Positions 17,567-20,495 of a stretch of DNA of 64,000 bases are shown here, one piece after another (position 1 is the first letter of the stretch; each line of letters begins with the position of its first letter). A program made the translations under genes and the position numbers. The stretch is taken from assembly GCA_049287305.1 (NCBI GenBank), contig JBAQFO010000014.1, forward strand, positions 128,453 to 192,452. Direction: 5' to 3'. This DNA is from Minisyncoccia bacterium (GTDB lineage Bacteria > Patescibacteriota > Minisyncoccia > Phycocordibacterales > UBA9973). The notes beneath the pieces were generated by a model. That model was not told the origin of the DNA. It did no database searches and saw nothing but the letters and a program-made list of their open reading frames with translations.

Positions 17567-19017
17567 TTTACCTCCGGCCAAAAAGTATTTATTACATCAT
17601 CACCTAAAAATTCAGCAAGTTCTCCTGATGGTTTATTTTCACCAATACATTTTGCTACTCTTAATGTCCAAGGGATGTTTTTAGGACTCAAGATTTGAGA
17701 GAGTTGTTGAATTACATCTTTCAAATCATCATCTTTACGGTTCCAAGAATCGCAAGAATCCAAAAGTGTTTGTTTGGCGCCATATTTATTACTCTCAGAT
17801 TTAATTTTTAGTTTTGCTTCATCCCAATTATTTAACCCTAGAGATGAAAGAACTTCGTTAGAAAGAAAAAGGTTTTCAGATTCTCGACACGCAAGTTTGA
17901 TAAATTTTATATTTAACTGCTGATTGCTCTCATCTGCTATTGGTAGTGATTGATCGCCATCCAAAAGAGCATACCCAACTGGATTAGATTGATCTGACCT
18001 TAGGCTAGTAAATAACTTCTCTAAAGATTTTTGATAGTTTTTTACCTCTTCAGACCCACTACAAGGGATAACTGCAAGGGGAACTTTATGATATCTTGGT
18101 ATTTGGCTCCAAATTTTATTATCATCATCTCCCTCTACTAGTAATAGTGGTGCACCAAAAAGTGGACCCATCAAAGCATGCCCCCCTAAACAAGTAGAAA
18201 GTTCTTGTAACGCTTTATTGAATTTTATTGCCTTCTGTTCTTTTATTGAATTATTTAAATAAATAACACTAGTTTTTTCTTCACCATGATAACCAAGAGC
18301 AGAGAGTAACGTAGTACTATGTGTCGCAATTACTATCTGAACTTTATATTTATCAAGTAATTTAACTAAGAAATTTGCTAAGTGTTGTTGCAAGTCTGGA
18401 TGCAAGTGTGTATCAGGTTCATCAATAAGCAAAACTCTACTGGTTTGATTTTCTAATTCCCACATAGCACAAATAGTAAGCAGATCTATTGCTAGAGTTA
18501 AAATTTCTGCTTCCCCTGTACTTAAAGCATTAACACTGGATACAATATCATCATTATGTATTCTCTTTAGTTCAAAGGGAGGATTTTGACCTGTTATAGA
18601 AAATTGGAAATCGGGTAATAATATTTGTAGAGTATCTTCAATATCTTGAACATTAACAGGGCTGGCCGCTCCTCGCGAGGTCACATTACCAATTTTAATA
18701 AACAATGCTTGAATACGAGAAATTGATTCTTGACGATAAGTAGGAGAAAGATTATTTCTCCCTCTTCCAGCTCTGCTAGGAGCGGTCAGTTGTTCCTGCA
18801 TAATCCCAACATCATGAGTAATATCACCAGCTCTTTCTGGAGAAGTGTAATGATAAGTACTTTGATCAGTATCTCTAAGGAGTCTGAGTAAGCGACTTTT
18901 TCCAGATCCATTTTTACCGAACAAAACAGTAATCTCATTTAAATCCTTGAGTTCCCATTGTTCTGCACCAAGATATCCTGGTCTTACAATATTTAAATCT
19001 GAGAAATATTTTGCCAT
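17563..19017 (-). CDS. OLD-family ATP-dependent endonuclease (ABC ATPase + Toprim)
   Basis: Walker A GKNGSGKS, ABC signature LSTGEAEIL, Walker B VLLIDEPDTHLHP, H-loop ATHS. C-terminal Toprim has LLLVEGDDDNKIW (Glu) and LLDGDQS (DxD). Confidence 0.75.
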   Translation of the reverse strand: MAKYFSDLNIVRPGYLGAEQWELKDLNEITVLFGKNGSGKSRLLRLLRDTDQSTYHYTSPERAGDITHDVGIMQEQLTAPSRAGRGRNNLSPTYRQESISRIQALFIKIGNVTSRGAASPVNVQDIEDTLQILLPDFQFSITGQNPPFELKRIHNDDIVSSVNALSTGEAEILTLAIDLLTICAMWELENQTSRVLLIDEPDTHLHPDLQQHLANFLVKLLDKYKVQIVIATHSTTLLSALGYHGEEKTSVIYLNNSIKEQKAIKFNKALQELSTCLGGHALMGPLFGAPLLLVEGDDDNKIWSQIPRYHKVPLAVIPCSGSEEVKNYQKSLEKLFTSLRSDQSNPVGYALLDGDQSLPIADESNQQLNIKFIKLACRESENLFLSNEVLSSLGLNNWDEAKLKIKSESNKYGAKQTLLDSCDSWNRKDDDLKDVIQQLSQILSPKNIPWTLRVAKCIGENKPSGELAEFLGDDVINTFWPEVN

Positions 19018-19058
19018 AATTTTAACCCGTCTAGGTCCTTCGATACTAAACTAAACTG

Positions 19059-19129
19059 CTGGGAGACTAGGAATCGAACCTAGATTAAAGGCTTCAAAGG
19101 CCTCTGTCCTACCGTTAGACGATCTCCCA
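19059..19129 (-). tRNA. tRNA-Gln(UUG)
   Basis: Manual fold of TGGGAGA TC GTCT AACGGTA GGAC A GAGGC CTTTGAA GCCTT TAAT CTAGG TTCGATT CCTAG TCTCCCA G. U1:A72 is typical of bacterial tRNA-Gln. Anticodon UUG. Confidence 0.8.
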
Positions 19130-19133
19130 ATGT

Positions 19134-19370
19134 TTAAAACTTTAACAACAATTCTTTCTTACCCTTGGCCGTTTTGTAATATTTCTCTTTTCTGAAAGCT
19201 TCATACCTATCATCGCATGCTTCAGAATACAGAATTTCAAAAGGGATGCGGGATTTGGTGGATTTCACTTTGCCTGAATTATGATAACTTAGACGTTGCC
19301 CTAAATCATGCGTACACCCTACGTATAGATTACCATCCTTTTTGCTTTTCAAAACATAGACAAAGTGCAT
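19134..19370 (-). CDS. GIY-YIG nuclease superfamily small protein (UPF0213-like)
   Basis: MHFVYVLKSKKDGNLYVGCTHDLGQRLSYHN is a GIY-YIG core. 78 aa. Confidence 0.7.
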   Translation of the reverse strand: MHFVYVLKSKKDGNLYVGCTHDLGQRLSYHNSGKVKSTKSRIPFEILYSEACDDRYEAFRKEKYYKTAKGKKELLLKF

Positions 19371-19375
19371 ATGTT

Positions 19376-19447
19376 TTTGTCCTACCGTTAGCCTCGCCCA
19401 TAGGCTGGAGCCTGATGGCTACGGCCGAGGGACGATCTCCCAATATT
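19376..19447 (-). repeat. Partial duplicate of the tRNA-Gln 5' end (acceptor + D-arm, 25 nt) interrupted by a 40-nt GC-rich hairpin
   Basis: TGGGAGATCGT + CCCTCGGCCGTAGCCATCAGGCTCCAGCCTATGGGCGAGG + CTAACGGTAGGACA. It matches the tRNA at 19105-19131 on either side of the insert. Confidence 0.6.
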
Positions 19448-20495
19448 AACTAACTTTACCATCCTGCCCCAAAATCTTGACCAAAGCAAGCTCTAATGGC
19501 AATTCGGCGATAAAAGCGTTGTCCATTTGTTGATATGCTTCCAAAAACACAGCAAGGGCTGGAGAACGAAGCATTCCAGCTTTGTCTTCTTTTACCAGGT
19601 TTTTCAGAAATTCCATATCGGCTTCCGAAAGGTCCCCAACCATTTCTTCTTCAAGCTTTGGAGCATAACGCAAGATTATTGCCATTCGAAACTTTTGAAC
19701 AATAAGTTTGAAGAATAATTTAATATCCAGGTTGGCTTCTGACGCGGTCCGAATAGTAGTGATGCCTTTTTCCAAATCTTGGAGAGCTATGGCGGACAGC
19801 ACTTCATTTACCATGGTTGTTTTCGGTGCTCCTGTAATTTTCTCCACATCTTCCCTCTTTATTTTTTTACCTTTGGAAAAATTTACAACTTTTTGAAGTT
19901 CTCCGAGGGCGTCACGGAATGATCCGTCGGCGAGCACGGCCAGGAGCTCAGCGCTTCCCGCTTCCAAAGTAAAACCTTCTTTCTCCGCCACGTCTTCCAG
20001 GATATTCTTTAGTATTTTTTCTGTTGGTTTTTTGAAAGTGAAAACCTGACAACGGGAAATAATAGTTTCGGGAACTTTATGGAGCTCGGTCGTAGCCAAA
20101 ATAAATATCACGTGCTTTGGAGGTTCTTCCAATGTTTTCAAAAGCGCTCCCCAAGCATCCTTAGAAAGCATATGGACTTCATCTATTATGTAAACTTTAT
20201 ACTTGGAATCAAAAGGAAGAACTCGCACTCCATCACGAAGCTCTTTGATGTCTTCAATTCCCCTATTGGATGCGGCGTCTATTTCATAGAGGTCGTTCGC
20301 CGAGACGCCGATGTTTTCGGCAAAGATTCTTGCCACCGTGGTTTTACCCGTTCCCCGTGAGCCGACGAACAAATACGCGTGAGAAACTTTATTTGTTTTC
20401 ACTGAGCTTTCCAGCACATCCACTATGTGGTCTTGTCCCAGAACTTCCTTGAATTTTTGCGGTCGGTATTTCCTGTATAAAGCTAAATCGTGCAT
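19446..20495 (-). CDS. dnaX: DNA polymerase III subunit gamma/tau (short form)
   Basis: YRPQKFKEVLGQDHIV...HAYLFVGSRGTGKTT and downstream clamp-loader motifs (ISRCQ). Confidence 0.8.
   Translation of the reverse strand: MHDLALYRKYRPQKFKEVLGQDHIVDVLESSVKTNKVSHAYLFVGSRGTGKTTVARIFAENIGVSANDLYEIDAASNRGIEDIKELRDGVRVLPFDSKYKVYIIDEVHMLSKDAWGALLKTLEEPPKHVIFILATTELHKVPETIISRCQVFTFKKPTEKILKNILEDVAEKEGFTLEAGSAELLAVLADGSFRDALGELQKVVNFSKGKKIKREDVEKITGAPKTTMVNEVLSAIALQDLEKGITTIRTASEANLDIKLFFKLIVQKFRMAIILRYAPKLEEEMVGDLSEADMEFLKNLVKEDKAGMLRSPALAVFLEAYQQMDNAFIAELPLELALVKILGQDGKVS

Follow-up and report, generated by a model that had tools for sequence, protein, structure and literature searches.

Organization of the tRNA-Gln locus

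The locus described here lies on the minus strand of a 64-kb stretch of DNA (hereafter the window) from a metagenome-assembled genome of the Minisyncoccia, a lineage of the candidate phyla radiation (CPR/Patescibacteria). It combines an intact tRNA-Gln(UUG) gene with a second, partial copy of its 5′ end, a GC-rich hairpin (hereafter H) and a small gene of the GIY-YIG nuclease superfamily. On this strand, dnaX is followed, only 3 nucleotides (nt) after its stop codon, by the dinucleotide AT and nt 1-12 of the tRNA, then by H, by tRNA nt 12-25, by the GIY-YIG open reading frame (ORF) and finally by the intact tRNA gene. A partial duplication of the tRNA 5′ end had been proposed in the original prediction, made from the letters of this stretch, and was borne out: ATTGGGAGATCGTC occurs exactly twice in the window (19118-19131 and 19431-19444), as does CTAACGGTAGGACA (19105-19118 and 19378-19391), the chance expectation being 0.01 for each of these 14-nt halves, and two matches were obtained in none of 100 shuffles. 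The two halves of the upstream copy are separated by CCCTCGGCCGTAGCCATCAGGCTCCAGCCTATGGGCGAGG (19392-19431), found only once in the window. H has a 12-bp stem with one G.G mismatch, a calculated DNA folding energy of -11.1 kcal/mol (z = -2.8) and a C on both sides. Its point of insertion, rightly predicted to fall in the D-stem of the duplicate, is ambiguous by this one C only (tRNA position 11/12 or 12/13, in the 5′ strand of the D-stem).

The sole ORF between the tRNA copies encodes a 78-residue GIY-YIG protein, as had been anticipated, leaving only about 76 nt of non-coding DNA between the repeats. The motif AGGA at 19380-19383, inside the copy of tRNA nt 12-25 and 9 nt ahead of the GIY-YIG ATG, is a possible Shine-Dalgarno sequence for this ORF, judging from its spacing. 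The identical arrangement is present in two independent Logan assemblies (L001 and L002) and is therefore not an assembly artefact. Both Logan contigs end at the same base (L001:2947 and L002:1814, ...GGTAGGAC), within the downstream repeat copy; this shared end could reflect a graph branch caused by allelic variants (tandem or empty forms), or the repeat itself.

Rfam models applied to the whole window reported four tRNAs only, with no intron or known RNA family, and a promoter and terminator scan of 18950-19750 reported nothing on the minus strand near the module. Because the unit begins 3 nt after dnaX and has no predicted promoter of its own, co-transcription of leader, ORF and tRNA is implied. 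An intrinsic terminator or attenuator was rejected, as H continues into CTAACGGTAGG rather than a run of T and no terminator-like site was reported there. A group I intron carrying a GIY-YIG ORF was likewise rejected, given that Rfam finds no ribozyme core, the non-coding DNA is too short, the insertion is in the D-arm and not in the anticodon loop, and a complete tRNA follows.

Table 1. Features of the tRNA-Gln locus in window coordinates, ordered along the minus strand
Feature	Position	Strand	Remark
dnaX (DNA polymerase III gamma/tau), upstream neighbour	19446..20495	-	anchor for finding cassette-free orthologous loci
Orphaned tRNA-Gln 5′ fragment, AT + tRNA positions 1-12, ATTGGGAGATCGTC	19431..19444	-	exact 14-nt repeat of 19118-19131
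Type-A palindromic element H, 39-nt core CCTCGGCCGTAG-CCATCAGGCTCCAGC-CTATGGGCGAGG	19392..19430	-	fold, and arms recurring at other loci
Copy of tRNA positions 12-25, CTAACGGTAGGACA	19378..19391	-	exact repeat of 19105-19118
Spacer AAAACAT, orphan tRNA copy to start codon (7 nt)	19371..19377	-	
Gene for 78-residue, domain-only GIY-YIG nuclease (UPF0213 / Slx1-YhbQ-like URI domain)	19134..19370	-	PF01541
Spacer ACAT, ORF stop to tRNA +1	19130..19133	-	ORF ends 4 nt ahead of tRNA
Intact tRNA-Gln(UUG), putative regenerated functional copy	19058..19129	-	ARAGORN; Rfam tRNA model, 64.8 bits

Directly 3′ of the tRNA, the segment 16487-19017 encodes an OLD-family ATPase of 484 residues, of the fused AriA/AriB (PARIS)-like type (PADLOC AriAB, E = 2.8e-28), together with a large serine recombinase whose resolvase domain lacks its first ~55 residues. 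The segment has the appearance of a decayed defence islet beside the tRNA.

The GIY-YIG protein

The protein matches the Pfam family PF01541 over residues 1-71 (E = 7e-17), and its catalytic residues are conserved: in an alignment of 39 homologues, Y5, Y16, H30 and E62 are invariant and R26 nearly so. Among proteins of known structure, its sequence matches 1ZG2 (BH0048, E = 1.6e-8) and 1YWL (EF2693, E = 2.4e-5), both named UPF0213. By sequence similarity, it is assigned to the UPF0213 / Slx1-YhbQ-YazA URI family, and Slx1, YhbQ and YazA belong to a family of structure-selective nucleases (PMC7017083). The C-terminal PHD/zinc-finger domain of Slx1 proper (PMC7017083) is absent, the 78 residues leaving no room for it, and the protein matches no defence family in PADLOC. 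The homologues (124 were found) come mainly from CPR genomes. Several carry an N-terminal extension, 'MGEANGRT...', which corresponds to the translated 3′ arm of H and tRNA D-loop, and several end in a tail, 'KHWGIV*' or 'KHCGIV*', translated from AAACAT and tRNA positions 1-12 and terminated by the TAA of the D-loop. The ORF runs on into the tRNA in many homologues, where AAACAT encodes K-H.

Recurrence at tRNA genes in other genomes

A scan of GTDB, restricted to one genome per species and starting from 13 close sequences, returned 396 relatives, of which the best 80 loci were kept. In 42 of these 80, the ORF is followed on the same strand, at a distance of at most 130 nt, by a tRNA gene. 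Of the ~30 closest homologues (at least 55% identity), nearly all are encoded within about 120 nt, and mostly within 50 nt, upstream of tRNA-Gln (CUG or UUG), or of tRNA-Glu in two cases; the genes of other GIY-YIG clades precede tRNA-Glu, Ser, Arg, Thr, Trp or Leu. In almost every tRNA-linked locus, the ORF is preceded by an incomplete second copy of the local tRNA that is split by a GC-rich palindrome. In the tRNA-Gln clade, this palindrome shares its arms (CCTCGGCCGTAG / CTACGGGCGAGG) and its G.G mismatch with the window copy and usually lies at the same tRNA position; overall, the window arms were found in ~30 of the loci retrieved through the protein. The same layout in dozens of CPR/Patescibacteria genomes is therefore not a chance local duplication. 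This last explanation had been linked in the original prediction to a module absent from related genomes and without further copies; the nearest relatives do lack the module, but it is abundant across the CPR.

A mirrored layout was observed outside the CPR, in which an intact tRNA gene (Gly, Cys or Arg) is followed by a GIY-YIG ORF and then by a 3′ tRNA fragment with a hairpin (L037 and L048, Zixibacteria; L059 and L063, Ignavibacteria; L082, Chitinophagales). There, the GC hairpin replaces the T-loop or the anticodon arm of the 3′ fragment, and two or three ORFs sometimes stand in tandem.

Coupling between nuclease clade and palindrome

When the proteins are clustered, the type of palindrome or inverted repeat follows the GIY-YIG clade and not the identity of the tRNA. 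The clade associated with the window palindrome (type A) includes two tRNA-Glu loci (L017 and L023), and a separate clade found mainly at tRNA-Glu is associated with a different palindrome, CCCCGCCAGCCCTCCCG... In further clades, the ORF is enclosed by short inverted repeats (ACCCCGTTAGAT...ATCTAACGGGGT, TTCACCCGCC...GCGGGTAAA and TGCCCCGTGTAAT...ATTACACAGGGCA) and splits protein genes cleanly at conserved motifs, with no visible target duplication.

The genes split in this way include those for four-helix-bundle '23S rRNA IVS proteins', interrupted between SNIA and EG, and AlbA_2-like genes, interrupted between REVIL and NAVIHRDY, the GIY-YIG ORFs having inverted repeats of 12-13 bp (L040:2480-2780, L039, L031, L051 and L065; L061:2480-2860, L068 and L055). 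The right inverted repeat of one sister clade, ATCTAACGGGG (L061, L068, L069, L073, L079 and L081), shares the 8 nt TCTAACGG with the D-arm of tRNA-Gln/Glu at the insertion site (window 19105-19122). The probability of such a match by chance is roughly estimated at ~0.01, and the similarity may hint that the tRNA D-loop mimics the end of an element.

H is a dispersed palindromic element

At least 120 contigs were returned when metagenomes were scanned for H, and its context was analysed in 100 non-redundant copies among the matches listed. Forty-two of these copies precede a GIY-YIG ORF by no more than 140 nt, on its strand in 32 cases and on the opposite one in 10; 38 occupy the canonical D-arm site of a tRNA, 12 of them with no ORF remaining, and 46 are located elsewhere with no GIY-YIG gene nearby. 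A C flanks H on both sides in 98 of the 100 copies, compatible with a 1-nt target duplication or with the C being part of the element, and there is otherwise almost no target preference. Membership of H in a cassette therefore accounts better than independent insertions for its constant position in the orphan tRNA copies.

H is found in both orientations, nested inside other copies of H and in tandem arrays with exact 1-nt spacers, as illustrated by arrays of four (L091:4245-4403) and three units (L138:1115-1233) in which a single C separates the units. Further tandem or hairpin-within-hairpin cases were noted at L010, L015, L024, L029 and L030 and in the comparison of L020 with L019. These arrangements suggest that new copies of H would enter at the boundary or in the loop of existing ones. 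In other genomes, H is also found inside long ORFs, where its length (29+1, 38+1 or 53+1 nt) is divisible by three and translation continues through it. In LepA, for example, 18 residues are added after VPPP (...VPPP[LGRSPLGRSPTGEPTGEA]KESV...). Other in-frame type-A hairpins are located at L110:3426-3478, L117:832-884 and L199:3656-3708, as well as in L096, L112, L153, L161, L188 and L205. Removal of H at the RNA level was rejected in view of these ORF-internal copies, with their multiple-of-three length and translation. The stem sequence, mismatch included, is conserved rather than co-varying. An ORF enclosed by split type-A arms, as expected of an autonomous form with terminal inverted repeats, was not found in a search confounded by the arms differing by one base.

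Boundaries of the duplicated unit

In 35 of about 50 loci, the orphan nt 1-12 are identical to the 5′ end of the local tRNA; 20 different 5′ ends occur in this set, and the cross-locus control gave 0.8%. Upstream of position -2, the identity of the flanks is no better than in the control, and the duplication therefore starts at the tRNA itself. On the other side, in 18 of 29 loci, the ORF continues across tRNA nt 1-12 as far as the TAA of the D-loop (T13-A14-A15), which is exactly the H junction. The window copy has gained a stop codon of its own 4 nt ahead of the tRNA. To the right of H, nt 12-25 match the local tRNA less faithfully and in an asymmetric manner: at nt 16, the orphan copy has T and the local tRNA C in 9 loci, and the reverse is seen in one. 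This asymmetry suggests that the tRNA 12-25 segment travels with the cassette. The simplest parse is a unit made of H, the D-arm remnant and an ORF ending in tRNA nt 1-12, inserted between positions 12 and 13.

Mini-versions without an ORF were also observed, in which an orphan tRNA 5′ end, H, a D-arm remnant and a 10-40-nt spacer lie directly upstream of the intact tRNA (L089:11674-11929, L097/L119/L196, L124, L128, L166 and L177), in some cases as two or three successive units. They have the appearance of non-autonomous cassette derivatives.

Empty sites beside dnaX

Seven of the closest DnaX orthologues (85-89% identity) were examined. A tRNA-Gln gene lies downstream of dnaX on the same strand in L083, L086, L087 and L208, and nearby on the opposite strand in L084 and L209. 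None of these six loci contains a GIY-YIG gene, an orphan tRNA copy or H, and the comparison of orthologous tRNA-Gln loci that had been advised thus returned six empty sites. In L210, no GIY-YIG gene follows dnaX and ARAGORN predicts no tRNA in the 4.3 kb retrieved. Sporadic presence at a conserved locus, by which free-standing homing endonuclease genes are recognized, is what was found here.

In several relatives, an unannotated ORF of 143-152 or 70 codons, with no Pfam match on record, directly follows dnaX (L083:3046-3504, L208:3050-3502, L210:3048-3479 and L086:2868-3080). In L083, L086 and L208 it sits between dnaX and tRNA-Gln, a position that it does not occupy in the window. Because this unrelated ORF (70-152 residues) is present in several relatives and missing from the window, the dnaX-tRNA intergenic spot is hypervariable. 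The tRNA itself was also compared: between the window and the cassette-free L083, L084, L086 and L087, nt 1-26 are identical, and nt 27, 41, 43, 49 and 61 differ, amounting to two compensatory pairs and one further change, while the anticodon arm of the window tRNA is identical to that of the cassette-bearing L005. The tRNA body may have been co-converted with the cassette, a scenario with which the pattern is compatible, but which it does not prove.

A proposed selfish cassette in an essential tRNA gene

The feature is best interpreted as one copy of a ~313-bp selfish cassette integrated in the 5′ part of tRNA-Gln, a reading to which we give a probability of about 0.65. The cassette would consist of H at its left end, the tRNA 12-25 remnant with a possible ribosome-binding site, the GIY-YIG gene and, at its right end, a replacement for tRNA nt 1-12. 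Its insertion between tRNA positions 12 and 13 (GATCGTC^TAAYGG) would strand the host nt 1-12 upstream, beside H, and would join the cassette-borne nt 1-12 to the host nt 13-72, so that the essential tRNA remains intact. The break would be made by the nuclease, maybe acting in a structure-selective manner on its cognate hairpin or on hairpin-like tRNA DNA, and would drive copying of the cassette into cassette-free tRNA alleles, either by homing, through double-strand-break repair, or by Campbell-type recombination in which a circular form uses the 12-14 nt of tRNA homology. The same nuclease would mobilize solo copies of H in trans. Cutting, copying route and solo-H mobilization are all inferred from the sequences. 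A more ambitious proposal is that the GIY-YIG nuclease mobilizes its own cognate hairpin in a structure-specific way, both as ORF-bearing cassettes that enter tRNA genes and mend them, and as solo hairpins in intergenic DNA and, in frame, in protein genes, and hence defines a new minimal class of DNA transposon or homing element; we hold this as a tentative idea against which the odds presently lie.

The suggestion in the original prediction of an att-type (attachment site) footprint left by an element targeting the tRNA 5′ half is in part retained by this reading, since the repeats would mark the junction of a tRNA-targeted mobile cassette, but there is no integrase/att system and the element is essentially a GIY-YIG gene. 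An integrative element using a tRNA att site was itself rejected, as no integrase lies between the repeats, where the GIY-YIG ORF stands alone, and as the repeats copy the 5′ portion of the tRNA.

Several points weigh against the cassette interpretation. The case for mobility is built wholly on comparative anatomy. With DnaX identities of only 85-89% to the nearest relatives, a gain in this lineage is inseparable from losses elsewhere, and some of these relatives have a different ORF between dnaX and the tRNA, a difference exceeding that of a simple insertion. The regenerated tRNA would retain the proposed target, and self-cleavage must somehow be avoided. The protein consists of a catalytic domain only, with no DNA-binding domain for a long recognition site. 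The nt-16 asymmetry could reflect C-to-T decay instead of a travelling segment. The viral contigs of IMG/VR contain 0 hairpins and 0 relatives of the protein, and hence give no sign of a phage vehicle. Finally, the search for further hairpin copies, which had been recommended at the outset, was successful in metagenome contigs, but the 64-kb window holds a single copy of H and no other GIY-YIG gene of this kind.

The same features could result from two unrelated events, in which a duplicated tRNA 5′ end was later hit by a hairpin resembling repetitive extragenic palindromic (REP) sequences or transposable elements of the miniature inverted-repeat type (MITEs), next to an ordinary Slx1/YhbQ-like repair nuclease gene placed upstream of the tRNA for co-expression. 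This is consistent with the 46 listed copies of H that lie in many contexts with no GIY-YIG gene nearby, with the wide distribution of UPF0213 proteins, which are not known as mobile, and with the argument that insertion into a functional tRNA would be lethal and hence visible in pseudo-copies only. Yet it leaves to coincidence that an element with almost no target specificity beyond a C occupies the same tRNA position in dozens of genomes, that the orphan copies match 20 different local tRNAs, that the hairpin type follows the nuclease clade, that the ORF ends exactly at the junction, that the gene is missing in close relatives and that sister clades interrupt protein genes. We therefore regard it as unlikely. 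The proposal in the original prediction of a REP/MITE-like hairpin is accordingly upheld in so far as H is a dispersed palindrome, recurring in at least 120 metagenome contigs and inserted in frame in proteins, but H is not an independent accident at this site, being a near-constant part of the cassette, with a type that tracks the nuclease clade.

A role at the RNA level has also to be weighed, in which the hairpin-split fragment is a structured 5′ leader, with a stabilizing stem-loop, a ribosome-binding site and perhaps an RNase P or tRNA-mimic signal, controlling GIY-YIG expression or processing of the co-transcribed tRNA and conserved on that account. The fragment is indeed immediately upstream of the ORF, with AGGA 9 nt ahead of its ATG, the hairpin is thermodynamically stable, and the unit follows dnaX by 3 nt with no predicted promoter of its own. 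H, however, can face either way relative to the ORF (same strand in 32 and opposite strand in 10 of the listed copies), and is also found in tandem, nested, remote from any GIY-YIG gene and translated in frame inside proteins, while its stem is conserved, mismatch included, instead of co-varying. Such a leader would be compatible with a cassette, but by itself leaves the duplication and the empty sites unexplained, and as the primary explanation it is quite improbable; a leader or ribosome-binding role of the orphan fragment within the cassette model is possible. The repeats could, lastly, be the att-type scar of a larger island, a PARIS-like ATPase and truncated serine recombinase element integrated at tRNA-Gln, as directly 3′ of the tRNA lies a segment of low GC content (0.33-0.35) with an AriA/AriB-like ATPase and a truncated large serine recombinase. 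The repeats flank only the GIY-YIG ORF and not this island, they copy the 5′ and not the 3′ end of the tRNA, the repeat-hairpin-ORF unit is also present in genomes that have no such island, and the far end of this island, near 16.4 kb, holds no second copy of the tRNA fragment. Serine recombinases, moreover, typically do not use tRNA att sites. This last explanation is very hard to sustain.

Relation to known systems

The proposed cassette shares features with several known elements. Free-standing GIY-YIG homing endonucleases are exemplified by the Seg proteins of phage T4, such as SegB in the T4 tRNA gene cluster (PMC2330249). In both cases, small GIY-YIG genes are located in or among conserved genes, including tRNA genes, are sporadic in relatives, and are presumed to spread when the element-free allele is cut and then repaired by copying. 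The Seg proteins, however, have ~200 residues or more and DNA-binding domains, whereas the window protein is a bare 78-residue catalytic domain of the UPF0213/Slx1 type. In addition, they act in a phage rather than on a CPR chromosome, and they neither split their target nor come with a replacement gene segment or a cognate palindrome.

A replacement segment is reportedly found in the mitochondrial atp6 element of Allomyces macrogynus, which carries a GIY-YIG ORF (as Paquin et al. are said to have described in 1994). As in the window, the element-borne segment would restore the host gene while the resident segment is left nearby as a pseudo-fragment, producing a direct duplication around the endonuclease ORF. 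In contrast, the atp6 element replaces a protein C-terminus in an organelle, while the window cassette would replace the 12-nt 5′ end of a bacterial tRNA and has a hairpin terminus, and cassette ORFs use the D-loop TAA of the tRNA as stop codon.

Dispersed GC-rich imperfect palindromes with a conserved mismatch, in both orientations and in clusters, are also characteristic of the REP/RAYT and IS200/IS605 systems and of the Rickettsia palindromic elements (RPEs). REP/RAYT and IS200/IS605 share with H the link between one repeat type and one cognate nuclease gene flanked by the repeat, and the RPEs share in-frame insertion in proteins with preservation of the frame. REP/RAYT and IS200/IS605 differ in relying on HUH/Y1 transposases in place of a GIY-YIG enzyme, and the copy number of H per genome seems low; no HUH gene is adjacent to the module in the window. 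To our knowledge, no mobilizing enzyme has been identified for the RPEs.

Tsurumaki et al. (2024) described non-intron insertions with GIY-YIG ORFs in the rRNA genes of CPR bacteria and judged them unlikely to spread by homing (PMC11270868). They concern the same organisms and the same superfamily, they occupy stem-loops of structured RNA genes and they are not group I or II introns. The study is limited to rRNA genes, makes no mention of tRNA and reports neither a hairpin-split gene copy nor a regenerating duplication (PMC11270868). Integrative elements that target tRNA genes likewise leave a partial tRNA copy directly repeated around the insert and keep the tRNA intact, but they use its 3′ part, span kilobases and encode a tyrosine integrase, as opposed to the 5′ part, the ~300 bp and the nuclease alone of the window cassette.

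In the open literature, no description was found of tRNA-linked cassettes made of a GIY-YIG gene and a palindrome, or of these palindromic elements of the CPR. The tRNA GIY-YIG/hairpin cassette is widespread in the CPR and apparently undescribed. It is akin to homing-endonuclease-like selfish elements and to palindromic repeats, with a substantial chance of representing a new class of transposon.

Implications for CPR bacteria and the UPF0213 family

The more ambitious proposal of a new transposon or homing class would make this system the first GIY-YIG-driven equivalent of REP/RAYT and IS200/IS605, and would assign a function to the orphan UPF0213 family. If the cassette interpretation is correct, the nuclease would be the likely mobilizing enzyme for palindromic repeats that also remodel proteins in frame. 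It would also provide a biological role for stand-alone UPF0213 proteins: the structures 1ZG2 and 1YWL were deposited only as 'hypothetical UPF0213 protein', and the literature searched assigns no function to the bacterial stand-alone relatives. As a compact nuclease directed to hairpins or tRNA, the enzyme would furthermore be of interest for biochemistry. The presence of such cassettes would explain the recurring pseudo-tRNA fragments and assembly breaks in metagenome-assembled genomes of the CPR, and would place the so far unexplained non-intron GIY-YIG insertions in rRNA genes of these bacteria within a wider element family. As the genomes of CPR/Patescibacteria are tiny and their tRNA genes single-copy, a parasite that enters an essential tRNA gene while carrying its own repair patch would represent a striking strategy in these organisms.

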